Positions 18,107-35,942 of a DNA stretch of 64,000 bases are shown here, piece by piece. The notes under the pieces are model-generated. The model was given only the letters and a program-made list of their open reading frames with translations. It was not told the origin of the DNA and did no database searches. Position numbers and translations under genes: made by a program. The stretch is taken from the IMG/VR virus record IMGVR_UViG_3300035698_007246, positions 1 to 64,000 of that record; one strand, given 5' to 3'. Source of the stretch: a virus. Positions within the stretch are counted from its first letter, which is position 1, and every line of letters begins with the position of its first letter.

Positions 18107-18607
18107 TTGACTAAAGTAATAAAAATAATCAGTGGGGGGCAATGTGGGTCCGATTCCGGTGGGTTGGCAGCGGCTTATGATTTGGGTATAGAAACAGGTG
18201 GAACTGCTCCTAAAAATTTTAGAACTAAATATGGTTCGAATCCTAAATTGAAAGCTCTGGGGTTGGTTGAACATAAATCATGGGAATACAAACCCAGAAC
18301 TTGGGATAATGTGCAAAATTCTGATGGAACCATTCGTTTTGCGTATGACTTTGAGTCTCCGGGTGAACGGGACACATTGGCAGCAATAATGAAATATACA
18401 AAGCCACATCTTGATATTGATTTAAAAGAACTTGAGATGGGGCATTATCTCCCATTCGACTTCACTGAATTCATAGACGAATATCAAATTTCAGTTCTAA
18501 ACGTTGCTGGTAATGGTGGAAAGGGTAGAGAAGAGTCTTCAAAGATTTTTAGTCTTGTGAGGAGGTATATGAAAATTTGGTTAGGATTTTGTAATAAGGA
18601 TGGATGA
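18107..18607 (+). CDS. SLOG-superfamily (YpsA / putative MoCo-carrier-like) protein
   Basis: IISGGQCGSDSGGLAAAYDLGIETGGTAPKNFRT resembles the GGQTGxD...GGxCPKGR signature of YpsA-like SLOG Rossmann domains. TTG start. Confidence 0.4.
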   Translation: MTKVIKIISGGQCGSDSGGLAAAYDLGIETGGTAPKNFRTKYGSNPKLKALGLVEHKSWEYKPRTWDNVQNSDGTIRFAYDFESPGERDTLAAIMKYTKPHLDIDLKELEMGHYLPFDFTEFIDEYQISVLNVAGNGGKGREESSKIFSLVRRYMKIWLGFCNKDG

Positions 18608-19650
18608 ATATGAAAGTTAGTAGATTTACGGATATAGGGCAATTCCGAAATGTTATTAGAACTATTTGTGATAGAGCAAAATTTGTTGGTTTGGGTGAGG
18701 ATGGTAATCCAATATTGGATGAATCTGCTACAATGCCAATATTAACATTTAAAGGAACTGTAAAACTTCATGGAACAAACGCAAGTGTTGGTTTTAATGA
18801 TGTTGGTATGTATTGTCAAAGCCGAACAGAAATAATAACTATAGACAAAGATAATGCAGGATTTGCATTTTTTGCTGAGTCTAAAAGGGAAATATTTAAA
18901 AATTGGAATAGTACAATTAGACATCACAACAATATAAAAGATTCCACTGTTATGATTTATGGTGAATGGTGTGGTGGTAATATTCAAAAGGGTGTGGCTA
19001 TAAATGGGTTGCCGAAGATGTTTGTAGTGATTGCTATTAAAATAATTCCTGATGATGAAGATGGTGTATCATATTATTTACAACCAAGATATTGGAATGA
19101 TTTAAATTGTCATGAAAAATTAATTTATAACATTTATGATTTTCAGTTGTATCAAATAGATATTGATTTTAATAATCCAAAATTATCACAAAATGAAATT
19201 GTTAAATTGGTTAAATTGGTTGAAGATGAATGTCCTGTTGGAAAATATTTTGGAGTATCTGGTGTTGGTGAGGGGATTGTTTGGGAAGGTTGGTGGAATT
19301 ATGAAAGGTATGTTTTTAAAACTAAAGGTGAAAAACATTCCGTGAGCAAAGTAAAAACAATTGCTGAAGTTGATGTTGAAAAATTAGATTCTATAAATGA
19401 TTTTGTGAAATATTCTGTTACTGATAATCGTCTTAATCAAGCAATTGAGCAGGTGTTTACATGTAAATCATTGAAACCTGATATTAAATACACTGGCGAC
19501 TTTTTACGGTGGTTAGTTAGTGATGTAATAAAAGAAGAGTTTGATACTTTGGTAGAAAATAATTTAGAACCAAAAGATGTTAAAAAAAGTATTAGTGTGT
19601 ATGGTAGAAAATGGTATTTTAAATATTTAAATGATTTGGATATATTATAA
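18604..19650 (+). CDS. RNA ligase, Rnl2-like
   Basis: Nucleotidyltransferase motif I KLHGTN (T4 Rnl2 has KIHGTN). Motif IV-like GEGIVWE. Motif V K-x-K (VFKTKGEKH). Size 348 aa is close to Rnl2. Confidence 0.55.
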   Translation: MNMKVSRFTDIGQFRNVIRTICDRAKFVGLGEDGNPILDESATMPILTFKGTVKLHGTNASVGFNDVGMYCQSRTEIITIDKDNAGFAFFAESKREIFKNWNSTIRHHNNIKDSTVMIYGEWCGGNIQKGVAINGLPKMFVVIAIKIIPDDEDGVSYYLQPRYWNDLNCHEKLIYNIYDFQLYQIDIDFNNPKLSQNEIVKLVKLVEDECPVGKYFGVSGVGEGIVWEGWWNYERYVFKTKGEKHSVSKVKTIAEVDVEKLDSINDFVKYSVTDNRLNQAIEQVFTCKSLKPDIKYTGDFLRWLVSDVIKEEFDTLVENNLEPKDVKKSISVYGRKWYFKYLNDLDIL

Positions 19651-19714
19651 TGGGTAACGAATATGTGTTTAAAGATATTCAAGATGGTGTTTTTGTGGTC
19701 AAGTTTAAAAAGGA

Positions 19715-20197
19715 GTGATGATGGGTGATGGTGACGAAAGAATAGAAGAAGCCTTTGGTTTGAGAGAGTTTTTTAATGAAGTCGCAAAATTAACTAAAAT
19801 ACAACTTGACAGCGGTGATGACCATAATATAATTTACTTTCATATGATGTCTGAGGCAGGTGAAGTTGCCGAGGCTCTTGCTAAGGAAAATGGTAGTTTG
19901 ACTAAGGCTCATAAGGATTTAAGTGAAACTGCTAAAGAAGAGGCTGTTGATGTGATTCAATGTGCTCTTTCTTTATATGTTTCTCTTGGTGGAGATATAA
20001 CACATCTCACCGAGTATGGTAAAAAGAAAAATGCTAAGTGGGAAAAGGCTCAAAAGAAATGTAGAAACATGGAAATGGTCAGTCTTCCGAAACAAGGTAA
20101 AAGTATTGAAGTAACCGAGGAATGGGAAGGCATTGACCCGGAGGAACAATTGCGTCCGATGGATAGTGCTGACCTTAAAGATTATATTATTGAATAG
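19715..20197 (+). CDS. MazG-like nucleotide pyrophosphohydrolase (putative)
   Basis: FHMMSEAGEVAEALAKE resembles the MazG EExxE/EL-EA helix motif. Confidence 0.35.
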   Translation: MMMGDGDERIEEAFGLREFFNEVAKLTKIQLDSGDDHNIIYFHMMSEAGEVAEALAKENGSLTKAHKDLSETAKEEAVDVIQCALSLYVSLGGDITHLTEYGKKKNAKWEKAQKKCRNMEMVSLPKQGKSIEVTEEWEGIDPEEQLRPMDSADLKDYIIE

Positions 20198-20206
20198 GAG
20201 TTTGAT

Positions 20207-20515
20207 ATGTATAGAGGAAACTTAAATATATCATTATTTGTTAATGGTATGGAATTGGATTCTAATAAAAATGTTGAATTGAAAAAAGCTATTTTTGAAA
20301 CTGCTAAAGAAGGTGATGTTATTTCATGGTTTCCTTTTAATCATTTTGGTGATGAAAATTCAGATTTTAAATCTGAATTAGAAGATTATCATGTTAAACC
20401 ACTAAAAATTAAAAAAATAGACCGCAATTATATTGATAGTTGGAATGGTGGTGTTAAAGTTGTGATAAACATTCATTTGGAAATAATTAGAAAGAAAAAA
20501 TGTTCAGTTTGTTAA
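20207..20515 (+). CDS. hypothetical protein
   Basis: ORF with GGAG RBS. Confidence 0.4.
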   Translation: MYRGNLNISLFVNGMELDSNKNVELKKAIFETAKEGDVISWFPFNHFGDENSDFKSELEDYHVKPLKIKKIDRNYIDSWNGGVKVVINIHLEIIRKKKCSVC

Positions 20516-20536
20516 ATTAAAATTTAGGAGTTTATA

Positions 20537-20881
20537 ATGACTTATGTGAGTAAGATGAAAAAATTTAAAGAAAGTCCATTGTTTAATAATTGTTATGACA
20601 AGTTTGTTCGGTTTTTAAAGATGTCTGGACAAACATTTAAATCGAAAGATTTAGAAGTTGTGTTGGGAATACGTGGCACAGAACTTAGACAGCTCGCACA
20701 ACATGCCCGTAGAAGCGGTGTGCTCATTTGTAGTGGTTCATACGGTTATAAGTATGCCAAATCTAAAAATGACGCTGAGAGTACCGTAAAACACCTTAAA
20801 GAGCGTATGAAAAGTCTTCAATCAACAATTAGAGTTATGACACTATCTGACCATTATCAAACTCTAACGAAAGGGAGATAA
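20537..20881 (+). CDS. hypothetical protein
   Basis: ORF after TAGGAG RBS. Confidence 0.45.
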   Translation: MTYVSKMKKFKESPLFNNCYDKFVRFLKMSGQTFKSKDLEVVLGIRGTELRQLAQHARRSGVLICSGSYGYKYAKSKNDAESTVKHLKERMKSLQSTIRVMTLSDHYQTLTKGR

Positions 20882-21309
20882 TGTACACACTTGATGTTAT
20901 TGATAATCGTGATGAAAAAACAATCCAGGGGCAAATTACAAAGTTCAAGGAGGAGCTACTTCAAGAAATTGAATTTTGTCATGATGATAGCAAACTTGAA
21001 ACTAATTTAATTGATTGGATTGTTGCTAATCGTGTTAACCAATCTATTTTGATTGGTGAGCATAAACGTGAAATGGGTTTTGAATCTAATTTAAAAGCGG
21101 ATGATATTTATGATGTCCCGGAATCTGTTATTACTGAATTAGTTTCTCATAGTGAGAAACACAAACATGTTGTTTTTAAATTAACTTATAAACCTCTTGA
21201 TCCTTATGAAGCATGGGTTCGTTATTATAAGAACGGAAAAATGCAACAGTGTGGTGTGGAGATGGTTGTCCCTGATTTTGATGAAAAGAAATTAAAGGTG
21301 ATAGAGTAA
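20881..21309 (+). CDS. hypothetical protein
   Basis: ATGT overlap coupling. Confidence 0.45.
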   Translation: MYTLDVIDNRDEKTIQGQITKFKEELLQEIEFCHDDSKLETNLIDWIVANRVNQSILIGEHKREMGFESNLKADDIYDVPESVITELVSHSEKHKHVVFKLTYKPLDPYEAWVRYYKNGKMQQCGVEMVVPDFDEKKLKVIE

Positions 21310-21322
21310 GATTTAATAGAAG

Positions 21323-21715: not shown

Positions 21716-21718
21716 CTC

Positions 21719-21747
21719 TTGACATCGTTTTCCCCATTAATTATATT
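21719..21747 (+). promoter_or_regulatory. sigma70-like promoter (TTGACA-N17-TATATT)
   Basis: CTCTTGACATCGTTTTCCCCATTAATTATATT. Confidence 0.55.
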
Positions 21748-21790
21748 ATTATAAAATTGAAAGGGTGAAATTTAATTCTGGAGGTTATGT

Positions 21791-22090: not shown

Positions 22091-22537
22091 ATGAAAATAA
22101 TAAAAGGTGATTTAATTAAAATGACATTAGATGGTAAATTTGATGTCATCATACATGGCTGCAACTGTTTTGTTGTGATGGGTGGCGGGATAGCCAAGCA
22201 AATTAAAGAAGCATTCCCCGAAGCGTATGCAGCAGACTGTGAAACGGTTAAAGGTGATAAAACGAAATTGGGTATGAATACTTATGCTAAAGTTGGTGAT
22301 GTTATAATTGTTAATGGTTATACTCAATTTACATATCAAAGAAAAGTTAGTGTTGATTATGACGCTATTCGTAGTGTATTCGAGCAGATATATTTTCATT
22401 TTAAAGGAACCACTGCCAGGATTGGGTATCCTCTCATTGGTTGTGGACTTGCTGGTGGTGATTGGGATATTGTTTCTAAAATTATTGATGAGGAATTAAA
22501 AGAACTCGACCATACATTAGTTGAGTGGGATGGTTAA
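22091..22537 (+). CDS. macro domain protein (TARG1/DarG-macro-like ADP-ribose hydrolase)
   Basis: IIHGCNCFVVMGGGIAKQIKEAFPEAY matches the macrodomain Gly-rich ADP-ribose-binding loop. The H-C-x-x-C context resembles the TARG1/OARD1 subfamily. Confidence 0.55.
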   Translation: MKIIKGDLIKMTLDGKFDVIIHGCNCFVVMGGGIAKQIKEAFPEAYAADCETVKGDKTKLGMNTYAKVGDVIIVNGYTQFTYQRKVSVDYDAIRSVFEQIYFHFKGTTARIGYPLIGCGLAGGDWDIVSKIIDEELKELDHTLVEWDG

Positions 22538-22734: not shown

Positions 22735-22917
22735 ATGAAAATATTGAAATTCATATTAATGGTTCTTGAAATTTGGGTAGTGTGTACAATATTTATGTGT
22801 TTCAAGTATATTCCAGATTGGGATTTAGCTCAATTTTGTGGTGGGGCGGGGTATGGTGCATATGGAGTAATAAGAATTATCATGTGGAGTAAATATTATA
22901 CGGAGAACAGTAAATGA
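22735..22917 (+). CDS. small membrane protein
   Basis: 60-aa hydrophobic ORF after GGGAGGAAAA RBS. Confidence 0.35.
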   Translation: MKILKFILMVLEIWVVCTIFMCFKYIPDWDLAQFCGGAGYGAYGVIRIIMWSKYYTENSK

Positions 22918-23756
22918 TTTTATTGACTGGGGATACACATAGAAGTGAAGACATACATAAATTGGGAACAAGTTGTTTTCCAGTGGACTGTGATAGACTT
23001 ACAAAAGAAGATTATCTTATTGTGTTGGGTGACTTTGGATTAGTCTGGAGTAGACCGGAATCTAAGTTTTACAAAGAAGAATTATATTGGCAGGGATGGT
23101 TAGCCGATAAGCCGTGGACAACATTGTTTGTTGATGGTAACCATGAGAATCATCCGATGTTGTATGAACTACCTGAAGTGGAAAAGTTTGGTAGCAAGGT
23201 TGGAAAAGTTAATGATTCCATATACCATCTTAAGAGAGGTGAAGTCTATGAAATTGAAGGGCAAACGTTCTTCACAATGGGTGGAGCATTCTCTATTGAT
23301 AGGAATACGAAAGTAAAAGGAGTTAGCTGGTGGGAAGAGGAGATTCCTTCTACTGCTGAGTTCGAATATGGATTGAAAAATCTTGAAGCTCATGGTTGGA
23401 AAGTTGATTACATTTTGGGACATACTTGCCCATATAACATTGGGAGATTATATCTGAAATGTATAACTGACGCAGGTAATAATATACTTCAAAAAATAAA
23501 TATGGATGATGTTGGTGTGTCATTGACAGGTGAACAACTTGCATATTTATCATTTGATGAAGAATATTTTTCTGGAAAATTGGATGGTATTTCAAAATAT
23601 TTTGATACTGTTGTCGAATATACACAGTTTAAAAAGTTTTATTTCGGACATTTTCATGATTCATGGTGTACCAAAGGAGAACGATATATTATGTTGTATG
23701 AAGATATCGTTTTCTTGGATGAAATAAAACCAGAATGGAAATCGGTTTGGGAATAA
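22914..23756 (+). CDS. calcineurin-like metallophosphoesterase
   Basis: GDTHRS (GDxH), LGDFG (GDxxD), DGNHENH (GNHE) motifs in canonical order. Confidence 0.55.
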   Translation: MILLTGDTHRSEDIHKLGTSCFPVDCDRLTKEDYLIVLGDFGLVWSRPESKFYKEELYWQGWLADKPWTTLFVDGNHENHPMLYELPEVEKFGSKVGKVNDSIYHLKRGEVYEIEGQTFFTMGGAFSIDRNTKVKGVSWWEEEIPSTAEFEYGLKNLEAHGWKVDYILGHTCPYNIGRLYLKCITDAGNNILQKINMDDVGVSLTGEQLAYLSFDEEYFSGKLDGISKYFDTVVEYTQFKKFYFGHFHDSWCTKGERYIMLYEDIVFLDEIKPEWKSVWE

Positions 23757-23792
23757 ATAGTAATTTAATTTTTAATTGAAAGGAGATTTGCT

Positions 23793-24617
23793 ATGCAAAA
23801 AAAGGCAATCTTATTAGTAATCGACCCACAGAATGATTTTTGTGACAAGGATAAAGGTTCACTCTATGTAAATGGTGCAGACAAAGATATGGAACGTCTC
23901 GCCACAATGGTAAAAACACATGGTAATGAATTAAAACGTATTGATGTCACTCTCGACTCTCACCATACTGTGCATATTGCACATCCTATTTGGTGGGTGA
24001 ATTCTAAAAATGAACCACCTCCTCCATTTACAGTTATTAGTGTTGAAGATGTGGAAAAGGGTACATGGAGAGCATTGAATCCGGGATTCCAACAATGGAG
24101 TTTGGATTATGTAAAATCTCTTCGTGACAACAAACGTTATGTTCTTTGTATCTGGCCCTATCATTGTAGAATCGGTACTCCTGGTGCAAATGTGTATCCT
24201 GAATTTGAAGCTGCATTGAATGAGTGGGAAATGAAATTTAGAATGGTAAACTATGTTCCAAAAGGAAGTTCAATCTTTACAGAACACTATTCTGCACTTC
24301 GTGCCGATGTTGAGTTTACGGGCTTTCAAGGAATTCCTTCCGACCCAACAACTCAATTGAATACTCCATTTGTTGCGACATTCAAAACAGGTCTTGATAT
24401 TCTTATTGGTGGTGAAGCGATTGATTTTTGCGTTGCTAATACAGCAAGAGATATTGCTAATGAATTTTCAGTTGACCAAATCAAACAAATGGTACTTCTT
24501 GAAGACGCTTCAAGTGCAGTAAATGCACCTGGACTCGAACATCTAAAAGACGATTTCGTTAATGAGATGGTCGGTAAAGGTATGAGAATTTCAAAAACAA
24601 CTGAATATTTTAAATAG
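23793..24617 (+). CDS. pncA: nicotinamidase / isochorismatase-family cysteine hydrolase (PncA-like)
   Basis: LLVIDPQNDFC (catalytic Asp region, DFC as in PncA). GEAIDFCVANTARDIA (nucleophile Cys region). Confidence 0.6.
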   Translation: MQKKAILLVIDPQNDFCDKDKGSLYVNGADKDMERLATMVKTHGNELKRIDVTLDSHHTVHIAHPIWWVNSKNEPPPPFTVISVEDVEKGTWRALNPGFQQWSLDYVKSLRDNKRYVLCIWPYHCRIGTPGANVYPEFEAALNEWEMKFRMVNYVPKGSSIFTEHYSALRADVEFTGFQGIPSDPTTQLNTPFVATFKTGLDILIGGEAIDFCVANTARDIANEFSVDQIKQMVLLEDASSAVNAPGLEHLKDDFVNEMVGKGMRISKTTEYFK

Positions 24618-24662: not shown

Positions 24663-24698
24663 AATAAAAGTTATAAACAATAATTGAAGGAGAATATA

Positions 24699-25439
24699 AT
24701 GGAAGATAATAATTTCGATATGTCAATGTTCACAACACCAAATAATTTCAAATACTCAGCTATTGAGACTGATAGTCTGAAAGCTGATGGTTATACAATC
24801 GTTAATATCCTTGTTGACACCACAGGAAGTGTGTGGGGAATGGAAAAAGATATTGAAGGATGTATTAAAAAAATAGTTGACTCTTGTAGAAAACATCCAA
24901 GAGCTGAACAATTACTTATCAGGGTTGCATACTTTGATGGTGATAATGGTATTCGTGAAGCTCATGGTTTTACATTAATTTCATCTACACCAGTTGATTA
25001 TAAGATTATTATTGGTGGGATGACACCTTTAATTGATGCTACACTTGATTGTGTAGAAACAATTGAAGGACATTCAAAAACACTTGAAGCTCAAGAGTTC
25101 TCTTCAAATGGTGTATACTTTGTAATTACAGATGGTGGGGAAAATGATTCCAGAATAAAAGACCCTACAAAAATCTTAGACACATTGAAAAGAATCCGCA
25201 AGGAAGAAATTTGTGCAACTATCAAAGGATTTTTGATTGGGCTTAATGATTCTGGTGGTACTGATGTTGAATTACAAGATTTCAAAGAAAAAGCTGGATT
25301 TGAAGAGTACATTTCAATTAATAATGTGACTCCAGGTGCATTAGCAAAGCTCGCACAATGGGTAAGTCAGTCAATCAGTTCGACTTCACAAGCTCTTAAT
25401 TCTGGAGGACCAAGTCAATCAATCGATTTTAATTTGTAA
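24699..25439 (+). CDS. vWA-like domain protein (TerY-like, tentative)
   Basis: VDTTGSV possible MIDAS DxSxS-like motif. Alpha/beta pattern. Sits immediately upstream of the PP2C-like and kinase-like genes. Confidence 0.35.
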   Translation: MEDNNFDMSMFTTPNNFKYSAIETDSLKADGYTIVNILVDTTGSVWGMEKDIEGCIKKIVDSCRKHPRAEQLLIRVAYFDGDNGIREAHGFTLISSTPVDYKIIIGGMTPLIDATLDCVETIEGHSKTLEAQEFSSNGVYFVITDGGENDSRIKDPTKILDTLKRIRKEEICATIKGFLIGLNDSGGTDVELQDFKEKAGFEEYISINNVTPGALAKLAQWVSQSISSTSQALNSGGPSQSIDFNL

Positions 25440-25474: not shown

Positions 25475-26359
25475 ATGATAATTAATACTGATTCAATATA
25501 TATTAAAGGGCATAACCATAAGGTATGTGAAGATTATAGTATTGATGGTTCAGTACCAACACTCAATGATAGTTTAGGTGATGTTCATTATGCAATTGTG
25601 TGTGATGGATGTTCGGGTTCTGATGGGTATGTTGATGTTGGTGCACGACTTATTGCACATGGGTTAATTAAATTTCTCAGAAATATGGGAAATTCTGTTC
25701 ATTATTATTACAGAGAACCCACTGGGTTTTATGAAAATTTACAATTTCACATGCAACGAGTAATATATAATTCAGCAGAGAATTTTGGGTTATCAAAACT
25801 TTCATTCGTTGCTACAATACAGGCAATAATTGTTATTAAAGATAAATTATTTCATTTCCATTATGGTGATGGTTCAATAATACATTATTGTGATGGTGAT
25901 ATACATAGGCCATATTATACAGACTTCCCTTCAGGTGCACCATACTATTTTGTAGATAGTTTTGAAGGTCGTGATATGGAAAGATATTGTAAACGATTTG
26001 AAATGAATAAAGTAATTCAGGATGGTGTGGAATTTGATGTTCATGATTATGTTTACGAATGGTCAAATTTCTGGAATGTGATTGATTTGAATACAATGGC
26101 TGATGGAAACAATGTGTTTGCTGTTACCAGTGATGGTATAGAAACGTGTTATTACAATGATGATAACGATAATGGTAAACAAGTTGCTGTTGATTTTGAT
26201 GATACTCTTAATGCAGCATTCTGCTTTAAAAACTTCCAAGGTGAATTTGTTAAACGTAGATTCAATAAGTTTTTCAAGGTAATGGAAGATTCAAAAATTA
26301 AACATTATGATGACATCTCAGTTGCTGCAATCAGTATAAAAAAGGAAGGTGATTTATGA
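25475..26359 (+). CDS. PP2C-family Ser/Thr phosphatase-like protein
   Basis: AIVCDGCSGSDGYVDVGARL (PPM motif 1/2-like DG.GG). HYGDGSIIHY and VTSDGIE (later metal-binding Asp motifs). Confidence 0.45.
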   Translation: MIINTDSIYIKGHNHKVCEDYSIDGSVPTLNDSLGDVHYAIVCDGCSGSDGYVDVGARLIAHGLIKFLRNMGNSVHYYYREPTGFYENLQFHMQRVIYNSAENFGLSKLSFVATIQAIIVIKDKLFHFHYGDGSIIHYCDGDIHRPYYTDFPSGAPYYFVDSFEGRDMERYCKRFEMNKVIQDGVEFDVHDYVYEWSNFWNVIDLNTMADGNNVFAVTSDGIETCYYNDDNDNGKQVAVDFDDTLNAAFCFKNFQGEFVKRRFNKFFKVMEDSKIKHYDDISVAAISIKKEGDL

Positions 26360-26385
26360 TTTTAATAATATTGAATTAACTATTG

Positions 26386-26414
26386 ACATTTATTTGGTCA
26401 TAATTTATATTGGT
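26386..26414 (+). promoter_or_regulatory. sigma70-like promoter (TTGACA-N17-TATATT)
   Basis: ACTATTGACATTTATTTGGTCATAATTTATATT. Confidence 0.5.
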
Positions 26415-26436: not shown

Positions 26437-28134
26437 ATGAAACCGTTTGATGTTATTCTTGATGGTCGAAATATTAGATTAGATTCTAAGTGTTATTTAA
26501 GTCAAGGTGGACAGGGTGTGATATATTTAAAGAATAATTGTATTTTTAAAATATATCATGACCCAAAGTTATTAATTCCAGAGATGAAAATTGATGAGCT
26601 TCAGGTGTTAAGTGATATGAATAATATAATTATTCCGACAAAATCACTTTACAAAGGACATACCCGAGTTGGATTTGTAATGGAATATGTTCATGATACT
26701 GAGTTTTTGTGTAAAATATTTTCTGGTAATTTTAAAACTAATAATAATATCACACCTCAAATGGTTGTTGATATAATAAAATTTCAACAGGATACTGTTC
26801 AGGGTGTTCATGACCGTGGTGTTATCTTCGGTGATTATAACGAAATGAATCAGCTATTGAGTGCTGATTTCAAAATACCTTATCATATTGATATGGATTC
26901 TGTACAAACCAAGAGTTTTAAATGTAATGCAATTATGGAAAGTGTGCGGGATCGTCAGTTACCGTTTGGTGAATTCAATGAAGGTTCTGATTGGTTCAGT
27001 TGGGCCGTGGTGACATTTCAAATGTATTGTGGAATAAATCCGTACAAAGGCACTCATCCAAAATTCAAAAAATCTGAATGGTCAAAACGGATGGATGCAA
27101 ACATCTCTGTGTTTGATAAAGATGTGAATGTTCCTAAGTTTGTTGATTTCAGTGTGATACCAACCAATCATTTGGAATGGTACAAACAGGTATTTATCAA
27201 TGGTGACCGTTCTATTCCCCCGGCACCAACTGGAGTTTCGAATATTAAAGTTATCAAGAAGATTTATGTTGACGATAAGTCAAGTGTTACTGCTAACCTT
27301 CTTTTCAAATATGATGGGAATATACTGGATGTGGTGTATCGTAATGGCACTTACTTTGTTCTTACATCAGATGGTGTGTATTATGATGATAGAAAAAGAA
27401 TAACTTTTGATAATGAAATTGACAATGGTCATCTCTTGTTCACACCGAATAACGATGTTGTGATTGCAACAAAGGTCGGTGATGAATTTAAAATCTTTGA
27501 TGGTCATAAAACTCAAATTTCAAAATTAACAAGTGGAAAATATTATATATTTAATAACTGTATCTATCTTATTGACAAGAGTGGACTTATTCAATACAGC
27601 TTCGAACGTATAGGAAAGATTAAATGTCTTCCAAGAGTTATCTCTAACGTGAGTTATAACTCAGCAAAAATATATGAAGGTGTTGTATTGCAAGACATCT
27701 TCGGAAAGTATTCAGCACTGATTCCATATGAAATTAATATGTGTAAACGTATTGATATCCTTGAGTTGAGTGGATGTAGAATACTTGACGCAAAGAGACT
27801 TGGGCGTTGGATGTTTGTTGTGTATGAAAAGGCAGGGAAATTCTGTTGTCTTAGTTTGTACTTTGATAAAGAATTTAAATCTTATAAAGCGAATGTTGAA
27901 GAGCATGTTGATTTCAAAAACATCAATGCGATGATAAAAGAAAATAACATGGTTGTCTTTAACAAGGATGATAATACTTTGGAACTGTGTTATGATATGA
28001 GTCAAAGTAAAGTCATGGAGAATACACCAGTGTATAATGACTTGGAACTTGTTTCTGGTAAGGCAACTTGTTTTATGAATGGAAAAGAACTGTATTCATT
28101 GGAGGCGAAAAAAAGTAATGGGAACCAGTATTAG
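26437..28134 (+). CDS. protein-kinase-like domain protein (N-terminal ~220 aa) with large C-terminal domain
   Basis: Gly-rich SQGGQGVIY, then K in KIY, hinge VMEYV. Catalytic-loop-like HDRGVIFGDYNEMNQLL and DMD (DFG-like). Confidence 0.4.
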   Translation: MKPFDVILDGRNIRLDSKCYLSQGGQGVIYLKNNCIFKIYHDPKLLIPEMKIDELQVLSDMNNIIIPTKSLYKGHTRVGFVMEYVHDTEFLCKIFSGNFKTNNNITPQMVVDIIKFQQDTVQGVHDRGVIFGDYNEMNQLLSADFKIPYHIDMDSVQTKSFKCNAIMESVRDRQLPFGEFNEGSDWFSWAVVTFQMYCGINPYKGTHPKFKKSEWSKRMDANISVFDKDVNVPKFVDFSVIPTNHLEWYKQVFINGDRSIPPAPTGVSNIKVIKKIYVDDKSSVTANLLFKYDGNILDVVYRNGTYFVLTSDGVYYDDRKRITFDNEIDNGHLLFTPNNDVVIATKVGDEFKIFDGHKTQISKLTSGKYYIFNNCIYLIDKSGLIQYSFERIGKIKCLPRVISNVSYNSAKIYEGVVLQDIFGKYSALIPYEINMCKRIDILELSGCRILDAKRLGRWMFVVYEKAGKFCCLSLYFDKEFKSYKANVEEHVDFKNINAMIKENNMVVFNKDDNTLELCYDMSQSKVMENTPVYNDLELVSGKATCFMNGKELYSLEAKKSNGNQY

Positions 28135-28192: not shown

Positions 28193-28692
28193 ATGAAATG
28201 ATAAAAGTAATACTGATGATTGGATTACCCGGTAGTGGTAAATCAACAGTGGCTGAGAAAATGTTACTTAGTTCAAAGAAGACAGTGATAGTTAGTCGTG
28301 ACTCTATAAGAGAAATGGTTTGTGGTAAATATAAGAACTACAAATTTACTGACATCAAAGAAGATATGGTAAAGTCAATGGCAACTGCTTGTATTGAAGT
28401 CGCTATTGAACGTGGCTTGAGTGTGATAGTGGATGAAACAAACTTTACAAAGAAGTCCAGAACATACTGGATGAATATGATATCATGCATTTGCGAACGC
28501 AAGGGTGTCAATGTGAAGTACTGTGGTGTGTGGGTTGATACACCAAAGGGTGAGTGTATCAAAAGACGCAAAGCCGACCCTAAAGGAACCAATGATAATT
28601 GGGCTGCCATCATAGGGAATATGTTGAAGTATTGGGATGAACCTGAAGCTGATGAATTTGACAAATTGGAAATTATAACAGACGAGGTATAA
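28193..28692 (+). CDS. polynucleotide 5'-kinase (T4 Pnk kinase-domain-like), no phosphatase domain
   Basis: P-loop ILMIGLPGSGKST, then SRDSIRE and VDETNFTKKSRTYW. Collinear with T4 Pnk kinase domain (ILTIGCPGSGKST...NRDDYRQ...ISDTNLNPERR). Confidence 0.55.
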
Positions 28693-28695
28693 GAG

Positions 28696-29139
28696 ATGTC
28701 TGAACATTTAGAAAAAACTGTAGAAGACGCAATTGTGTTGGCGACACATGCTCTTACTGGACAAAAGGATAAGGTAGGGTTACCAGTAATCCTTCATTCT
28801 ATGAGAGTCATGCTTGCATGTAACACACCAAAACAAATGATGGTTGCTGCTTTACATGATGTGGTAGAAGATTCAACGATTAGTGTTGAAGACCTTCGTA
28901 AAGATGGATATCCAAAAGATGTTTGTGACGCTGTAGACGCAATGAGCAGACGTAATGATGAAACATGGGAAGTATTTATTGAACGTTGTTCTAAGAATTC
29001 ATTGGGAGCTACTGTGAAGCGAATTGACATCTCTGATAACAATAGTCCAATCAGACAGATTGGGTTACCATTGGAGAAACGTGAAAAACTCAGAGCTAAG
29101 TATCAGAAAGCAATCAAATTTTTGGATGGTGTTGAATGA
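28696..29139 (+). CDS. HD-domain phosphohydrolase
   Basis: H...(ILHSMRV)...ALHDVVED...D pattern of HD superfamily. Coupled to the Pnk-like gene. Confidence 0.45.
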   Translation: MSEHLEKTVEDAIVLATHALTGQKDKVGLPVILHSMRVMLACNTPKQMMVAALHDVVEDSTISVEDLRKDGYPKDVCDAVDAMSRRNDETWEVFIERCSKNSLGATVKRIDISDNNSPIRQIGLPLEKREKLRAKYQKAIKFLDGVE

Positions 29140-29486
29140 AAATATTAATACTTGATGATAGTGTATCAAGACAACGCCAATTCAAAAGAAAATATATTGG
29201 GCATGAAGTGACACAGGTTTATACTGCACTTGCATGTGTTCATGCATTACAAACAGATATGTATGACGCAATATTTCTTGACCATGACTTAGGTGGACAA
29301 CAAATGGTTTCATCAGGTCCTGGAACTGGATTTGAAGTTGCTGAGTACTTAAGTAAGAATACAAATCGAGCACCGGAGATTATATTTTTACATTCATTGA
29401 ATACTCCGGGTACTGAAAATATGAAAAAAATACTGGCTACGGCTGGTTTAAATGGAGTTAAAGAACCTTTTTTATGGAAAGAGTGA
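29136..29486 (+). CDS. stand-alone response-regulator receiver (CheY-like) domain protein
   Basis: MKILILDDS (acidic pocket). AIFLDHDLGG (phospho-acceptor Asp position). About 116 aa. Confidence 0.4.
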   Translation: MKILILDDSVSRQRQFKRKYIGHEVTQVYTALACVHALQTDMYDAIFLDHDLGGQQMVSSGPGTGFEVAEYLSKNTNRAPEIIFLHSLNTPGTENMKKILATAGLNGVKEPFLWKE

Positions 29487-30012: not shown

Positions 30013-30828
30013 ATGAAAATTAATTTTTTAGGTGCTGGTTCTGCATTTACTATGAAGGGATTCCAAACGAATTTCCTCATACAAGAAAACGGAAAGAATT
30101 TATTGATTGACGCTGGTGGAGATATACGATTCTCCTTGGCTAAACAGGGATTATCATATAAAGATATTGATGCTCTGTATTTAAGTCATGAACACGGTGA
30201 CCATTGTGGTGGGGTAGAAACTCTTGCGTCCTGTACATACTTTGACCCAACTGTCAAGGATACTATTCAACTGTTTGGAAATACCAAACTGTTGAGAAAT
30301 ATGTGGAAGAGTACACTATCTGGTGGTTTGAAATCAATTCAAGGTAAGGTAATGGGGTTGGATGATTACTTTGATGTTAATATGATTCCACCTAACAAAC
30401 AGTTTATTTGGGAAGATATAAAATTTGAAATTGTACAATCCGTTCATGTTATGAATGGTCGTGAGATTGTACCATCATATGGGTTAATGATGACTACACC
30501 GGAAAAGGTGAAGGTATATTTCACAGGTGATACCCAATTCAATCCTAATCAGATTATAGATTTCTATGAGGAAGCTGATTTTATTATTCAGGATTGTGAA
30601 ACATATCCTTTTAAGTCTGGTGTTCATGCTCATGTTGAAGAGTTAAAGACATTACCAAAACACATAAAAGAAAAGATGTTGCTTGTTCATATCAATGATA
30701 ATGTCCTTGATGATAATGGTGTTGTAAGTGCTGATTTTATGAACAAGGTCAGTGACTTTTATAGCGTTGCTTGTACAGGATTTGAAGTTGAAATGGCTAT
30801 TATAAAAAAAATAAAAGATAAGTCTTGA
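30013..30828 (+). CDS. metallo-beta-lactamase-fold hydrolase (possible phosphodiesterase)
   Basis: SHEHGDHCGG (HxHxDH). Later H and D residues in MBL order. Confidence 0.5.
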   Translation: MKINFLGAGSAFTMKGFQTNFLIQENGKNLLIDAGGDIRFSLAKQGLSYKDIDALYLSHEHGDHCGGVETLASCTYFDPTVKDTIQLFGNTKLLRNMWKSTLSGGLKSIQGKVMGLDDYFDVNMIPPNKQFIWEDIKFEIVQSVHVMNGREIVPSYGLMMTTPEKVKVYFTGDTQFNPNQIIDFYEEADFIIQDCETYPFKSGVHAHVEELKTLPKHIKEKMLLVHINDNVLDDNGVVSADFMNKVSDFYSVACTGFEVEMAIIKKIKDKS

Positions 30829-30853
30829 CATCACATTTCCCATTAGCTATATT
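30825..30853 (+). promoter_or_regulatory. sigma70-like promoter (TTGACA-N17-TATATT)
   Basis: GTCTTGACATCACATTTCCCATTAGCTATATT. The -35 box overlaps the upstream stop codon. Confidence 0.55.
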
Positions 30854-31799: not shown

Positions 31800-32426
31800 A
31801 TGGTAACTAAAAAGAATATATGGTATATTGCGGATTTACACTGGGACCACAGACGAATCATTGATTTAAGTGATAGACCATTTCATGATTTAAACCATAT
31901 GCAACATACCATTATTGATAACTGGAATAAAGTCGTTAATGATAGAGATGATGTATATGTGTTGGGTGATACGTGTTTTAGGGTTGATATGTTATTGAAA
32001 TTATTAGGAAAGTTAAATGGACATATTCATTTACTTAGAGGGAATCATGATTATGATGCGGTATCTAAACTTGATAAAGAGTATAAATTTGATAATATAA
32101 TAATTCATCAACAAGATATTGTTATTATAAAAGATGGTAATCGTGGAGTTGTCTTATGTCATTATCCAATTTTTGAATGGATTAAGTGGTATAATGGATA
32201 TTATCATATATTTGCCCACATTCATGGTAATATTAATGGTAATGAAAATAAATCACGAAGTTTTAGACTAAGAGCATATGATGCTGGTGTTGATGTTAAT
32301 AATTATACACCAACAACATTAGATGAATTTATAAATAGAAAATTAACATGTAGTGAATGTATGCATTTTTCTGTTTGTAAATATTCAGATGAAATCAATA
32401 GACATCAGTGTACGTATTTGAAATAG
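31800..32426 (+). CDS. metallophosphoesterase (calcineurin-like)
   Basis: ADLHWDH, LGDTCF (GDxx), RGNHD (GNHD/E). Confidence 0.5.
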   Translation: MVTKKNIWYIADLHWDHRRIIDLSDRPFHDLNHMQHTIIDNWNKVVNDRDDVYVLGDTCFRVDMLLKLLGKLNGHIHLLRGNHDYDAVSKLDKEYKFDNIIIHQQDIVIIKDGNRGVVLCHYPIFEWIKWYNGYYHIFAHIHGNINGNENKSRSFRLRAYDAGVDVNNYTPTTLDEFINRKLTCSECMHFSVCKYSDEINRHQCTYLK

Positions 32427-32486
32427 AAAGGTATTTTGGTGGTTGGAATTGGTATAATTGTAAGAATGTAATTAAGGAGAAAAGAA

Positions 32487-32822
32487 ATGATTTTAGAAAT
32501 TGACCCGGATAGACCGGAAATGTTTGATGAGAAGGTATTAACTGTGGAGTTTGCTATTGTAGATTTCCACGCTTCTTGGTGTGCCCCATGTAAGATATTT
32601 AAAAAGATATTTATTAGGTTTGCAGAAAAATTAAAAGCATATCCACAGATTAAGTTATTCACTATCAACAGTGATAAACACCCGGAGATTTGCTACAAGT
32701 ATAATGTTGCTTCCGTACCAACGCTTATATATTTTAAAAATGGTCGTGTGTTTAAATCCGTTTCAGGGATACAAACTGAAGAGCAGATGGTTGTTGCTAT
32801 TAATGAAATGAAAAAGTCTTAG
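32487..32822 (+). CDS. trx: thioredoxin
   Basis: WCAPCK active-site motif (WCxPC). Size 111 aa. AAGGAGAAAAG RBS. Confidence 0.7.
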   Translation: MILEIDPDRPEMFDEKVLTVEFAIVDFHASWCAPCKIFKKIFIRFAEKLKAYPQIKLFTINSDKHPEICYKYNVASVPTLIYFKNGRVFKSVSGIQTEEQMVVAINEMKKS

Positions 32823-32837
32823 AAAGAGTGGATTGAT

Positions 32838-33470
32838 ATGAAAGCTGCATTGATTCCTTGGAGTGGTGGATTGGACTCAACATATTCAGTGTTGACATAT
32901 CTTAAAAAAGGATACCGAGTTGACGCCCCATATTTCACCATTCAAAACAATGACAGAAAAGTTAAATGTGAAATAGAAACCATTAAAAGATTCAGAGATA
33001 TGGAACCATTCAAAACATATATCGACAATGGTAAATTGTGTGTGTATGAAAGTTCATCAGTTGAAATTTTAACAGACAGTGATTGTGTTGTTGAATTAAC
33101 TCAACCTCCTATATGGTTACTTGCTTCATTTTTTTGTGTTGGGTGGAGAAAACCTGTTGATGAATTGGTGATATCATATGTTTTGAATGATTGTGCCGTT
33201 TCATATGTTGATGATTTGAGACGTGTGTGGGAATCGTTGAGAGGGTTTGTTGGAATTGAAAATAGAAAACATTACCCGGAATTAAAATTTCCATTATTGA
33301 AAACGAATAAATTGAATATCATAGATGGTTATATAAATCAATTTGATAATGGGCATGATATATTGAATAATGTTTGGTGGTGTGAAAATCCAGAGGATGG
33401 AAAACTTTGTGGTTCTTGCACTCCTTGTAAAAGATATAAGGAAATATCTTACTTTGATGATAAATTTTAG
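32838..33470 (+). CDS. PP-loop ATP pyrophosphatase, QueC-like (7-cyano-7-deazaguanine synthase family, tentative)
   Basis: SGGLDST PP-loop near N-terminus. C-terminal Cys cluster CGSCTPC as in QueC zinc site. Confidence 0.4.
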   Translation: MKAALIPWSGGLDSTYSVLTYLKKGYRVDAPYFTIQNNDRKVKCEIETIKRFRDMEPFKTYIDNGKLCVYESSSVEILTDSDCVVELTQPPIWLLASFFCVGWRKPVDELVISYVLNDCAVSYVDDLRRVWESLRGFVGIENRKHYPELKFPLLKTNKLNIIDGYINQFDNGHDILNNVWWCENPEDGKLCGSCTPCKRYKEISYFDDKF

Positions 33471-33510
33471 TTTTCTTTAAAAAGAATTTAAATTTTAATT
33501 AAAAAAACTC

Positions 33511-33539
33511 TTGACTTCGATATGAACATAACATATCTT
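33511..33539 (+). promoter_or_regulatory. sigma70-like promoter (TTGACT, weaker -10)
   Basis: CTCTTGACTTCGATATGAACATAACATATCTT. Confidence 0.4.
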
Positions 33540-33581
33540 TAAAGCGTAATTAAAATTTAAATTCTTTCAAGGGAGATTCAA

Positions 33582-34451
33582 ATGAATAACAACACAAAAG
33601 TAAAATTCGAAGACCGTATAGACACTGCACAAGAAGCACTTGAAGCTGCTGGTTTGAATTATACTGTTGCACAAGCTGAAATTATGAACACTACTACTGG
33701 TACTGTTTCTGATAAATGTAAGTCTTTGTATCGCACTGATACAAATCAAGAGCTTGGTATTGTTGGTAAAAAATATGAACCGGTTCAAAACCACAAAGCA
33801 TTCTCCTACTTCGACACTATTTGTGAAATGCATGGTGCTCGATATTCTGAAGCAATCTCTTTCAATGGTGGAGAGAAAGTAATCCTCAAAGCTGAATTCC
33901 CCCGTCCAGAAGTTGTTGGTCGCAATGATGAGATTAAGAAACAATTCTGTCTTATCAATGGTTTCAATGGTGGTGTTGGAGTCATGGCTACATTTATGGT
34001 CAATAGGCTTATATGTTCTAACGGTCTTCGTGGTACGGTTCGTGACGCAAAGAATTCATTTCGATTCAAACATACTACTAATGTAAATTTTCGTATGGAA
34101 GAGGCTCTCAAGGTACTTGCTGCTGGAACTGATTATTTTAATCAATTCATACGTATGGCAAATGAATTGACACAGAAACAAATTGATTCTGCAATGGTTG
34201 ATAAGTTTTTGGTAAGTGTATTTGGTGACCCTCAATCAACACGTGGTGCAAATAAACAGGAAGAGATTAAAGGGTACATTGAAAGTGGTATTGGTAACTC
34301 TGGAAGCACTGCATGGGATTTATATAATGGTGTAACTGAGTATGTGAGTCATCATCATGGCAAAGATGAAATGAAACGTCTTGAGTATGCTAACTTTGGT
34401 GCTGGTGTTCAACTTTCTGAAACTGCATTTAAAGTTGCGTATAATCTTTAA
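33582..34451 (+). CDS. hypothetical protein
   Basis: 289-aa ORF with strong GGGAGA RBS. Own promoter and terminator, which suggests high expression. Confidence 0.5.
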   Translation: MNNNTKVKFEDRIDTAQEALEAAGLNYTVAQAEIMNTTTGTVSDKCKSLYRTDTNQELGIVGKKYEPVQNHKAFSYFDTICEMHGARYSEAISFNGGEKVILKAEFPRPEVVGRNDEIKKQFCLINGFNGGVGVMATFMVNRLICSNGLRGTVRDAKNSFRFKHTTNVNFRMEEALKVLAAGTDYFNQFIRMANELTQKQIDSAMVDKFLVSVFGDPQSTRGANKQEEIKGYIESGIGNSGSTAWDLYNGVTEYVSHHHGKDEMKRLEYANFGAGVQLSETAFKVAYNL

Positions 34452-34455
34452 TTCA

Positions 34456-34480
34456 AAGGGGAGCAATCCCCTATTTTAAT
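34456..34480 (+). terminator. rho-independent terminator
   Basis: AGGGGAGCAATCCCCT followed by ATTTT. Confidence 0.5.
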
Positions 34481-34528
34481 TGGGAGGTGCAATATGTCAA
34501 ATTTTTTAAAAACATTGGAACCATTATT

Positions 34529-34714
34529 ATGAAAAGAAAAAAATTATTAAATACAAAAATTAAATGCAATTCCTGTAAAAAGGAATTCGCGTATACTGGT
34601 AAGACTGGTGATATTCAATTTAGACCGTATCCATATATGGTAGAAATAGAAGGTGATAACACCAAATTTTGGTTATGTGATGATTGTTGTAATAGAAATG
34701 CTGAGGAAATATGA
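34529..34714 (+). CDS. small zinc-ribbon protein
   Basis: CNSCKKE...CDDCC cysteine pairs. Confidence 0.35.
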   Translation: MKRKKLLNTKIKCNSCKKEFAYTGKTGDIQFRPYPYMVEIEGDNTKFWLCDDCCNRNAEEI

Positions 34715-34995
34715 AAAAACACACAATAGAATGTACTCGAATTATAGTTATGTTAATATCATTGATATTTTATTTGGTTGTGATTGCGTGGAGAATGGAT
34801 GGTGTTGACTTATCAATGATGAATTTGGCATGTGGGGCACCAACGATGTTCTACTTGATGTTTGTGGTAACAAAGAATCGGGAACCGTATCATATATTTT
34901 CTTGTCTGTTAGGGATTCCGTTGTTTATGTTTATGGTAATTGATGTTTTAATTTTAACAATAACAGGTAGTTGGAAAACTACATTGGGGGTGTAA
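34711..34995 (+). CDS. membrane protein
   Basis: Three hydrophobic helices. ATGA coupling. Confidence 0.4.
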   Translation: MKKHTIECTRIIVMLISLIFYLVVIAWRMDGVDLSMMNLACGAPTMFYLMFVVTKNREPYHIFSCLLGIPLFMFMVIDVLILTITGSWKTTLGV

Positions 34996-34999
34996 AGAT

Positions 35000-35209
35000 A
35001 TGAGTAAATTAAATGAAAATGAATTTAAAGAAGTAACTAAAACATTTATAAACAGATTGAGTAATGAAATGTCAACCGCAGGGTGTAATGATTTGGATGA
35101 TGATGAATTTCCTACAACTGTTTGTGAGAAGTTTGATTCTGATTTTGAGTTATTATACGAGTGGAGTAGTATGATAGTTAAACAAAAGGAATTAAAAGAT
35201 GAAAAATGA
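35000..35209 (+). CDS. small acidic protein
   Basis: 69-aa ORF. Confidence 0.35.
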   Translation: MSKLNENEFKEVTKTFINRLSNEMSTAGCNDLDDDEFPTTVCEKFDSDFELLYEWSSMIVKQKELKDEK

Positions 35210-35942
35210 TAGTTTAGGTGATAGAATGAAGGGATATGAACACATATCCAGAATATTATTAACTCGTAGAATGCCACTCATCATCCGTGTGGATGGAAAA
35301 GCGTTCCACTCATTGACAAAGAAAATGGATAAACCATATGATATCACGTTTAGTCACTGCATGATGAGGACTGCACGTTTTCTTCTTGAGAACATTATGG
35401 GTGCAAAGCTCGCTTATGTTCAATCAGATGAGATTTCTGTATTGTTGACAGACTACGATTCATTGTCAACAGAGCCTTGGTTTCAAAAGAATATACAGAA
35501 AATCGTTAGTGTGTCTGCAAGTATGGCGACCATGAAATTTAATGAGTTGTATCGTACACATGTTCATTCATCAAAGAAAGTCAAAGATTATGGATTGTTT
35601 GATTCCAGAGTATTTGTTATTCCGAAGGAAGAGGTGTGTAATTATTTTATTTTTCGACAGCAAGACGCTGTTCGTAATTCCATTCAGGGATTAGGGCAAG
35701 CTCATTTCTCTCACAAAGAACTTCAAGGAAAGTCTTGTAATGCGATTCAGGATATGCTGATGGTTGATAAGAAAATCAATTGGAATGATATAAGCCCATA
35801 TTTTAAACGTGGTGGGTGTTTCTATCGCAACTTAAGCATTGATACTGATGAAAATACAAACAATGTTGTTACTGATGTTGCACCTCCGACATTCACACAA
35901 GACCGTGATTATATTGAGAAGTATTTGTTTCTCGAAAAATAA
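35199..35942 (+). CDS. Thg1-like protein (tRNA-His guanylyltransferase family, 3'-5' nucleotidyltransferase)
   Basis: N-terminal GYEHISRILLTRRMPLIIRVDGKAFHSLTKKMDKPYD ... AYVQSDEISVLL matches the Thg1/TLP palm-domain landmarks (RIDG+FH, carboxylate-bearing SDE). Confidence 0.55.
   Translation: MKNDSLGDRMKGYEHISRILLTRRMPLIIRVDGKAFHSLTKKMDKPYDITFSHCMMRTARFLLENIMGAKLAYVQSDEISVLLTDYDSLSTEPWFQKNIQKIVSVSASMATMKFNELYRTHVHSSKKVKDYGLFDSRVFVIPKEEVCNYFIFRQQDAVRNSIQGLGQAHFSHKELQGKSCNAIQDMLMVDKKINWNDISPYFKRGGCFYRNLSIDTDENTNNVVTDVAPPTFTQDRDYIEKYLFLEK

Follow-up and report, generated by a model that had tools for sequence, protein, structure and literature searches.

The 64,000-nucleotide (nt) stretch of viral DNA analysed here, positions 1 to 64,000 of IMG/VR record IMGVR_UViG_3300035698_007246 (hereafter the window), appears to encode five or six enzymes of RNA-end repair that are scattered through a counter-defence island. 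We favour, with a probability of roughly 0.6, a reading in which they form a loose repertoire and in which the HD-domain protein among them most likely has no part in the healing of cyclic phosphates. Profile searches, motifs and structure models identify an Rnl2-like RNA ligase, a Pnk-type kinase, a Thg1-like protein (TLP), a small alarmone hydrolase (the HD protein), a cyclic-phosphate-processing receiver-like (cREC) domain and an RlaP-family nucleotidyltransferase, all with intact active sites (Table 1). An earlier note on this DNA, made from the letters alone, had described the first four as a dispersed set that together look like one tRNA repair kit. The four open reading frames (ORFs) are all there on the plus strand and the enzymes are indeed scattered, but the unity of the kit was not supported: it is a reading from homology, and the genes fall into at least three promoter-delimited blocks and vary independently among relatives. 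The cREC, RlaP, MazG-like and Macro genes and two metallophosphoesterase-like genes had been overlooked. For comparison we used six related metagenomic lineages (contigs denoted by L and a number), in which the backbone is kept and protein identity across shared genes is ~35–85%.

The ligase carries motif I, KLHGTN, at residues 54–59, as had been noticed before, and the nucleotidyltransferase motifs are all present (K54-L-H-G-T-N59, G120-E121, F140-K146, E223-G224 and K239-x-K241). In a 40-sequence alignment of the family, K54, H56, G57, N59, E121, G224, K239 and K241 are invariant, and at least 90% of the members keep E223 of motif IV. The protein matched Pfam RNA_ligase (PF09414) at 46.5 bits (cutoff 27) and phrog_548, 'RNA ligase', at 190 bits across its full length. 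Its AlphaFold2 model (pLDDT 90.1) found full-length T4 Rnl2 (2hvr) as the best match in the Protein Data Bank (PDB), with an E-value of 7.5e-12 over 353 columns that include the helical C-terminal domain, followed by trypanosome REL1 (TbREL1) and then Naegleria Rnl (NgrRnl); the TM score against Rnl2 was just 0.46–0.50 because the domain orientation differs. DNA ligases matched the model far more weakly (E-values of at least 1e-3), and this ranking of folds ruled out a DNA ligase or a capping enzyme, the two other identities that had been considered for this ORF. A phmmer search of the PDB matched no solved ligase, and the curated NCBIfam Rnl2 equivalog TIGR02307 gave 19.5 bits, so far under its cutoff of 197 that the protein is not an Rnl2 orthologue but Rnl2-like in fold and motifs. 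Judged by motifs and model, it is an Rnl2-type RNA ligase, and the label 'Rnl2-like' is fair. The family is very large: the database holds 6,291 homologues, and 154 phage records carry one, many of them annotated 'RNA ligase 2'. Read from 18604, the ORF overlaps the stop codon of the cpYpsA/SLOG gene; the start is probably M3 at 18610, because the gene caller of the source contig gives 346 amino acids (aa).

The kinase matched Pfam AAA_33 at 68 bits, and also KTI12, and it matched phrog_505, 'polynucleotide kinase', at 102 bits over positions 1–147 of the 295-position profile, which is the N-terminal half. By sequence its best solved relative is the kinase domain of T4 Pnk (1ly1, E 1.5e-7), with which it shares the numbering of the P-loop G9-x-x-G12-x-G14-K15-S16 and of the acceptor motif R34-D35-x-x-R38. 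Across 13 homologues G9, P11, G12, G14, K15, D35 and R38 are invariant and S16 is kept in at least 90%. When the AlphaFold2 model (pLDDT 90.8) was compared by Foldseek, the top match was again T4 Pnk (2ia5, TM 0.74, root-mean-square deviation 2.4 Å, 27% identity), with PSTK, Clostridium Pnkp (CthPnkp) and mammalian PNKP next in the ranking. The protein, of 164 aa, lacks the fused C-terminal HAD 3'-phosphatase domain of T4 Pnkp, and a tblastn search gave 1,932 phage matches, those listed being annotated as polynucleotide kinase. Its motifs and predicted fold thus make it a kinase-only relative of T4 polynucleotide kinase, in agreement with the identity proposed earlier, but from the proposed start at 28193 the gene would be 500 nt long and out of frame. 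The reading frame is open from 28138, and the true start is almost certainly the ATG at 28198, because a AAAGGGAG ribosome-binding site lies 8 nt upstream of it and the close homologues are all 164–168 aa long.

The HD gene begins 3 nt past the kinase stop codon and encodes an HD motif, and its coordinates were as the earlier note had them. The role suggested there, that of a 2',3'-cyclic phosphate/3'-phosphate healing enzyme, was not upheld: the protein falls, by sequence, in the Aph1/small alarmone hydrolase family, and the kinase and HD genes also occur separately in relatives. It aligned end to end, over residues 8–143, with the (p)ppApp hydrolase Aph1 (7smg, E 5.9e-23) and more weakly with Mesh1 (3nqw, E 5e-6) and the hydrolase domains of Rel/SpoT; spoT_relA was its best NCBIfam match (E 1e-6) and phrog_990 scored 117 bits. 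The metal-site residues H34, H54-D55, E58-D59 and D111 are present. Pfam HD_4 (PF13328) scored 14.1 bits, under its cutoff of 27.2, and a precomputed match to it exists in 10 of 16 database homologues (self-match excluded). Aph1 hydrolyses the 3'-pyrophosphate of (p)ppApp and is phage-encoded (PMC10083569), and small alarmone hydrolases reverse the pyrophosphorylation of tRNA CCA ends by toxSAS (bioRxiv 10.1101/2021.04.30.441581). From its family, the chemistry of the HD protein is most likely the removal of 3'-pyrophosphates, not the opening of cyclic phosphates, and its substrate would be (p)ppApp/(p)ppGpp or possibly, by analogy, tRNA CCA ends modified by toxSAS/CapRel-type defences. An HD-Pnk type of fused architecture was considered and rejected; the window genes are separate, in the order kinase then HD.

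The cREC gene follows at once, its start overlapping the HD stop codon by 4 nt (ATGA). Its product has the acidic residues D7, D8 and D49, and no histidine kinase, the expected partner of a receiver domain, was found among the window ORFs scanned. A cREC protein of 52% identity is encoded next to the HD gene in L008/L009, and tblastn against deposited phages gave no cREC match. According to PMC7824862 and PMC9503650, cREC is predicted to act by opening either 2',3'-cyclic phosphates or the cyclic phosphates of ADP-ribose, and its partners in phages include RNA ligases, a nucleotide kinase, MazG and phosphoesterases of the calcineurin-like type. As a published candidate for the opening of cyclic phosphates, cREC appears better than the HD protein. 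The calcineurin-type metallophosphoesterase, which is kept in all relatives covering its position (L008, L018 and L020), may be an alternative phosphoesterase for 3'-end healing. The possible second metallophosphoesterase gave no Pfam match at E 0.01; its L020 homologue has a weak precomputed match to Metallophos_2, the gene is kept in L008 and L020, and it is a weak candidate for a 3' phosphatase. Thus the candidates for 3' healing would be cREC, by prediction, the metallophosphoesterases and, least likely, the HD protein.

RlaP lies outside the coordinates of the earlier note, and the ligase is 7.4 kb downstream of it; L023 has a 67% identical RlaP whose contig also carries the ligase. The RlaP enzymes of Pseudomonas extend damaged RNA 3' ends by one or two nucleoside monophosphates (PMC12776372), and the window RlaP is predicted by analogy to do likewise. 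The MazG-like gene is directly downstream of the ligase and, at 64% identity, also beside the ligase in L023. It seems to start near 19844, because a perfect (12/12) promoter-like site lies inside the long ORF, and its membership in the repair set is speculative. The Macro protein possibly processes ADP-ribose phosphate, to judge from its domain. In Av-05 and KE22, two phages of the Vequintavirinae, copies with 42% identity stand between the HD gene and the gene for an RNA ligase, and Macro domains have been linked to Thg1/PNK/ligase neighbourhoods (PMC2904730).

The TLP had been given its correct coordinates and family before. It matched phrog_4717 at 307 bits and the TLP of Bacillus thuringiensis (BtTLP; 4kgk) with an E-value of 3.9e-71 over residues 4–246, at ~50% identity. 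The palm carboxylates, whose loss would have spoken against a Thg1-like polymerase, are intact: D32, D77 and E78 correspond to BtTLP D30, D75 and E76, and E14 and R30 to E12 and R28. Against human, yeast and Candida Thg1 the E-values were about 1e-8 to 2e-8, and this comparison of E-values, rather than a tree, places the protein in the bacterial repair branch and not in the eukaryotic branch of G-1 addition. Its described rarity in phages holds only in a relative sense: of the 50,697 phage records deposited, 164 encode a homologue (46 from Bacillus, 15 from Prevotella, 13 from Caulobacter, 11 from Mycobacterium, and the rest from other hosts), a PHROG family exists, and among the matches listed most already bear the annotation tRNA-His guanylyltransferase. 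A Thg1-like gene is uncommon in phages but not new there. A 58% identical copy stands at the same position in L008, where the gene call for the TLP (13173–14468) runs to 431 aa; the additional ~170 aa at its C terminus match no Pfam domain and may be a fusion or a gene-calling artefact.

If the enzymes cooperate, a broken tRNA could be repaired as follows. The cyclic phosphate would be opened and removed by cREC and/or a metallophosphoesterase, which is the weakest step; the Pnk-type kinase would phosphorylate the 5'-OH, RlaP would restore one or two lost 3' nucleotides, and the Rnl2-like ligase would seal the 3'-OH/5'-P nick. Separately, the TLP would rebuild 5'-truncated acceptor stems using a 5'-phosphate that the same kinase can supply; 5'-phosphate ends are required by both the ATP-dependent ligase and the TLP (PMC2904730). 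The HD small alarmone hydrolase would strip 3'-pyrophosphates, outside the healing of cyclic phosphates. A bolder version has the Aph1-type hydrolase recruited with the kinase and cREC into a coupled trio that heals the 3' and 5' ends of tRNA and also strips the 3'-pyrophosphate left by CapRel/toxSAS from CCA ends. We regard this as improbable; if true, the trio together with RlaP, ligase and TLP would provide one enzyme for each known kind of tRNA end damage, namely anticodon-loop breaks, 3' truncation, 5' truncation and 3' pyrophosphorylation.

The arrangement of the genes and their distribution among relatives bear on whether this set is one system. Strong intergenic promoter-like sites are located at 18047, 21719, 26383, 30825 and 35946, most of them TTGACA-17-TATATT (sigma-70-like), and there is a terminator-like hairpin at 34457. 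Block boundaries were drawn from the strongest intergenic matches only; promoter-like sites in total numbered 113, not above the shuffled expectation of 104.5, so the evidence for blocks is weak. Among the lineages, the kinase, HD and cREC genes occur together in the window and in L008/9, which has the TLP and has no ligase after cpYpsA. The kinase and HD genes occur without cREC in L029/30, and the HD gene without the other two in L013. In L018/19/23 the kinase has neither HD nor cREC beside it, and RlaP, ligase and the MazG-like gene lie upstream; in L020/21 the kinase again stands without the two, and there is no TLP at the equivalent position. L023 retains RlaP, cpYpsA, the ligase, the MazG-like gene, Macro and the kinase, and L008 retains kinase-HD-cREC-Apyc1 and the TLP. 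In L029 the cREC position (1402–2163) is held by a protein of ~20-residue repeats ('YTYDDKGNKIKYEKSNGYWET...') with no similarity to the window. Possible functional substitutes at the place of the HD gene, a 171-aa ORF in L020 and ORFs of 113, 110 and 111 aa in L018, gave no family matches. The differing subsets imply that these are independently exchangeable accessory genes and not a co-inherited module: the repair genes are gained and lost one by one, as a repertoire. The adjacency of kinase and HD in three lineages keeps a functional link possible, though not obligate.

Several points weigh against concerted repair by these enzymes. The relatives carry differing subsets, and the strongest promoter-like sites suggest at least three separate blocks: cpYpsA-ligase, Pkinase-like-kinase-HD-cREC, and a small one ending in TLP. 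No tRNA gene was found in the window, and an Rfam scan of it gave no match; Y-RNA-like partners were not found either. The ligase stands without recognisable repair genes around it in two distant phage contigs, and the 4 kb around the TLP of Bacillus phages and of XacN1 hold no homologue of the kinase, ligase or Macro gene. To our knowledge, no biological role has been established for T4 Rnl2 itself. PMC9503650 describes cREC as lacking experimental characterisation, and the repair workflow as a whole, though likely, is drawn from homology.

The tight junctions around the HD gene suggest another reading, one we consider unlikely: kinase, HD and cREC would be a split end-healing module, analogous to HD-Pnk or T4 Pnkp, with the HD protein taking off the 2',3'-cyclic or 3'-phosphate and the module feeding the Rnl2-like ligase. 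Besides the 3-nt kinase/HD gap and the 4-nt HD/cREC overlap, it can call on the fact that kinase and HD are adjacent in the window, L008/9 and L029/30 in spite of HD identities of only 48–70%, and on RelA/SpoT-type HD enzymes acting on ribose 3'-(pyro)phosphates, some of them on tRNA 3' ends; HD-like phosphatases are also named as occasional components of phage RNA repair in PMC7824862. The family itself argues otherwise. The closest characterised relative of the HD protein is a (p)ppApp-specific hydrolase, and the 10,518 representatives in a 50%-clustered library are overwhelmingly stand-alone proteins of 140–160 aa from many unrelated contexts, homologues in deposited phages and bacteria having no kinase or cREC nearby. 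Fusions of kinase with HD or of HD with cREC were sought among the 148 nearest representatives, where phmmer gave no match to the window kinase or cREC; the ten longest, scanned against Pfam, have HAD, CHAD or Ogg-like domains or unassigned N-terminal extensions. The kinase does without HD in L018 and L020, and HD without the kinase in L013. In Vequintavirinae phages, where HD, Macro and the same ligase family lie within about 6–7 kb, an overlapping gene annotated as a kinase sits directly upstream of the HD homologue, near Macro and the homologous RNA ligase. This 'thymidylate kinase' has no detectable BLAST similarity to the window kinase and no Pfam match, so the pair cannot be counted as conservation of the kinase-HD pair.

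The same genes could instead serve to scavenge nucleotide signals against CBASS, Pycsar, Thoeris or alarmone immunity, with the kinase-HD-cREC-Apyc1 run not acting on RNA ends and the kinase acting on a small nucleotide or ADP-ribose derivative. Apyc1 follows ~500 nt past cREC in the window and immediately after it in L008, the HD protein is an alarmone hydrolase, and the neighbouring genes encode NAD/ADP-ribose enzymes; cREC is predicted equally for cyclic ADP-ribose phosphates in PMC7824862 and PMC9503650. The kinase makes this account improbable: whether it is compared by sequence, PHROG profile or fold, the proteins closest to it (T4 Pnk, PSTK, CthPnkp and mammalian PNKP) are without exception kinases of polynucleotides or tRNA, the acceptor-activating D35 and R38 of Pnk are invariant in its family, and it persists with RlaP and the ligase in relatives that have no HD, cREC or Apyc1.

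As to the TLP, it could work independently of the ligase and kinase in maturation, adding G-1 to, or finishing the 5' end of, a phage tRNA-His or another tRNA encoded elsewhere, a possibility put forward earlier for phage 201phi2-1 (PMC2904730). In phages the homologues usually stand alone and are annotated as tRNA-His guanylyltransferase, many large phages with a TLP also carry tRNA arrays, and the window TLP closes a small block of its own, between the terminator-like hairpin at 34457 and the promoter-like site at 35946. We hold this to be very unlikely, with no tRNA gene in the 64 kb, with the closest relative being the B. thuringiensis enzyme, which is characterised for templated 5'-end repair and not for G-1 addition, and with bacterial G-1 being normally genome-encoded (PMC3061083).

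Table 1 Features of the window that are discussed in the text.
Feature	Position	Strand	Evidence or remark
RlaP-family Pol-beta nucleotidyltransferase (RNA-ligase-associated)	10279..11223	+	PF10127, 33.5 bits (cutoff 23)
Rnl2-like ATP-dependent RNA ligase	18604..19650	+	Nucleotidyltransferase domain and helical C-terminal domain
MazG-like pyrophosphatase candidate	19715..20197	+	phrog_1247 'MazG-like', 30.8 bits; no Pfam match
Macro domain protein	22091..22537	+	PF01661, 38 bits
Calcineurin-type metallophosphoesterase	22914..23756	+	PF00149, 32.7 bits
vWA-like gene	24684-25439		No Pfam match
PP2C phosphatase	25475-26359
Pkinase-like protein	26437-28134		565 aa
Stand-alone Pnk-type 5'-OH polynucleotide kinase domain	28198..28692	+	Without phosphatase domain
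Small alarmone hydrolase, RelA/SpoT-type HD, Aph1 family	28696..29139	+	Predicted 3'-pyrophosphohydrolase
cREC domain gene	29136..29486	+	PF20274, 54.7 bits (cutoff 27)
Apyc1 (anti-Pycsar metallo-beta-lactamase) homologue	30013-30828		PF23023, 102.7 bits
Possible second metallophosphoesterase	31800..32426	+	Sequence features
Thg1-like protein, template-dependent 3'-5' RNA polymerase family	35199..35942	+	PF04446, 109.4 bits (cutoff 29.2)
NAD/ADP-ribose set: NADAR, cpYpsA-SLOG, Macro, two isochorismatase (nicotinamidase-like) genes, NadE, NAPRTase	16900-18607, 22091-22537, 23793-24617, 36363-37864; NAPRTase ORF somewhere in 39.8-64 kb
Near-perfect promoter-like motif copies	19806-19833, 21719-21747, 26383-26411, 30825-30853, 35946-35974		Four intergenic, one in the MazG-like ORF

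All long ORFs of the window are on the plus strand, the GC content is ~32% and the GC skew is positive throughout. The gene content points to a large, uncultured, low-GC tailed phage; an NAD-dependent DNA ligase, UvrD, a sigma factor and Apyc1 are also encoded, and individual genes have relatives in rIIA/B-type phages. When the 17-kb stretch was searched at near-identity DNA level against the 50,697 deposited phage records, the sole match was 52 nt long and chance-like, implying a phage without a cultured close relative, and identical or near-identical copies of the region were found on metagenomic contigs only. A search of IMG/VR for related loci with the HD and Pkinase-like proteins found none.

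The stretch from ~10 to 38 kb is likely an accessory island of NAD/ADP-ribose and nucleotide-signal counter-defence. The repair genes are flanked by NADAR, cpYpsA-SLOG, Macro, two isochorismatase-like genes, NadE, Apyc1 and a Nuc_deoxyribosyltransferase-like gene, and the NAD/ADP-ribose genes together could be a phage-encoded Preiss-Handler route of NAD+ salvage against NAD-depleting defences. The Apyc1 homologue is 74–78% identical in L008 and L013 and is not present in L018 and L020. Directly upstream of the Pnk-type kinase, the vWA-like, PP2C and Pkinase-like genes form a run of three that is kept in every related contig, and the Pkinase-like gene possibly shares a transcription block with the kinase from the promoter-like site at 26383. 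The run resembles the 'TerY-P triad' (vWA, PP2C and Ser/Thr kinase) of the Aravind literature. Near the kinase/HD/Apyc1 block, three relatives carry an RF-1-domain (ArfB-like peptidyl-tRNA hydrolase) gene (L008 9435–9794, L018 11634–11996 and L020 8383–8754), and in the unrelated Tunturiibacter phage Tunturi_4 (L014 6105–6452) an RF-1 domain lies ~700 nt downstream of an HD homologue. The window itself has no such gene; it could be a ribosome-rescue companion of tRNA-related genes. Elsewhere in the window, a protein with a ribosomal L7/L12 C-terminal domain (48211–48630, 45.7 bits) is followed two genes on by a YqeY-like (GatB-tail-like) protein (48877–49371, 83.4 bits), both domains being related to translation or tRNA and unusual in a phage. 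The NAD-dependent DNA ligase-like protein at 4395–6302 is divergent; none of its adenylation, OB and BRCT domains reaches the Pfam gathering score. The gene for a patatin-like phospholipase (12636–13568, 91.9 bits) has a 69% identical copy in L023.

Should the repair enzymes act together, nature would have packed a complete toolbox for RNA-end repair compactly into this phage, which would also offer a handle on the tRNA-targeting defences of its host. The practical value is modest. The ligase family, which has no solved structure, cREC and the phage TLP are reasonable targets for biochemistry; the literature searched held no study of a phage Thg1-like enzyme.

Among known systems, T4 RNA ligase 2 (gp24.1; 2hvq/2hvr) is the best structural match to the window ligase over both domains, the two sharing all motifs and a length of ~340 aa, but the identity is ~17% and the window protein belongs to a separate, very large family (phrog_548). 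T4 Pnkp and Rnl1, which evade the anticodon nuclease PrrC, likewise pair a phage 5'-kinase with an ATP-dependent RNA ligase from separate loci, and the kinase domains are homologous with the same K15, D35 and R38; the window ligase, however, is Rnl2-like and not Rnl1, and the window kinase lacks the HAD 3'-phosphatase domain. The TLP is ~50% identical to the B. thuringiensis enzyme (4kgk), with identical catalytic residues. The HD protein resembles Aph1 (7smg), Mesh1 and ATfaRel, being 147 aa long against 149 and having the same HD metal-site motifs, but unlike Aph1 its gene has no (p)ppApp synthetase toxin or MuF toxin adjacent to it and is translationally coupled to a Pnk-type kinase and cREC. 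The HD-Pnk of Runella slithyformis, from the Shuman laboratory, reportedly also combines an HD phosphoesterase with a Pnk-type kinase and is linked to a ligase. The window differs in having two genes, in the reverse order, and an HD of the RelA/SpoT (HD_4) type, an affinity that speaks indirectly against membership of the 2',3'-phosphoesterase clade.

At the level of gene sets, the most persistent partners of bacterial Thg1 genes are kinases of the PNK family, with Macro and RNA ligase genes as further associates (PMC2904730, 2010). The same partner domains occur in the same region of the window as in these Thg1-PNK-Macro-RNA ligase neighbourhoods (Anantharaman, Iyer & Aravind 2010), but here they are 7–17 kb away, in other transcription blocks and in no single operon, and the setting is a phage. 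A use of phage Thg1 in RNA repair against host defences was already suggested in 2010 (PMC2904730), and catalogues of phage repertoires from 2021–22 (PMC7824862 and PMC9503650) list Rnl1/Rnl2, Pnk, cREC, RlaP and 'HD-like' phosphatases, with Thg1 appearing sporadically. The systems of Iyer et al. (Viruses 2021, 2022) share with the window an Rnl2-family ligase, a polynucleotide kinase, cREC, MazG-like, a calcineurin-like phosphoesterase, RlaP and a sporadic Thg1, and the embedding of repair genes among NADAR, SLOG and Macro genes. The window differs in that the ORFs scanned yielded neither a sirtuin nor KptA and in that a small alarmone hydrolase stands between kinase and cREC, an arrangement that does not appear in those descriptions as far as they are available. 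This tight kinase-alarmone hydrolase-cREC arrangement is the only feature not found in the accounts of PMC2904730, PMC7824862 and PMC9503650, the last two in their available parts, and the mosaic distribution means that little is to be read into it. With phage RNA-repair repertoires, Thg1 included, in the literature since 2010 and 2021–22, the locus extends the known picture and does not change it.

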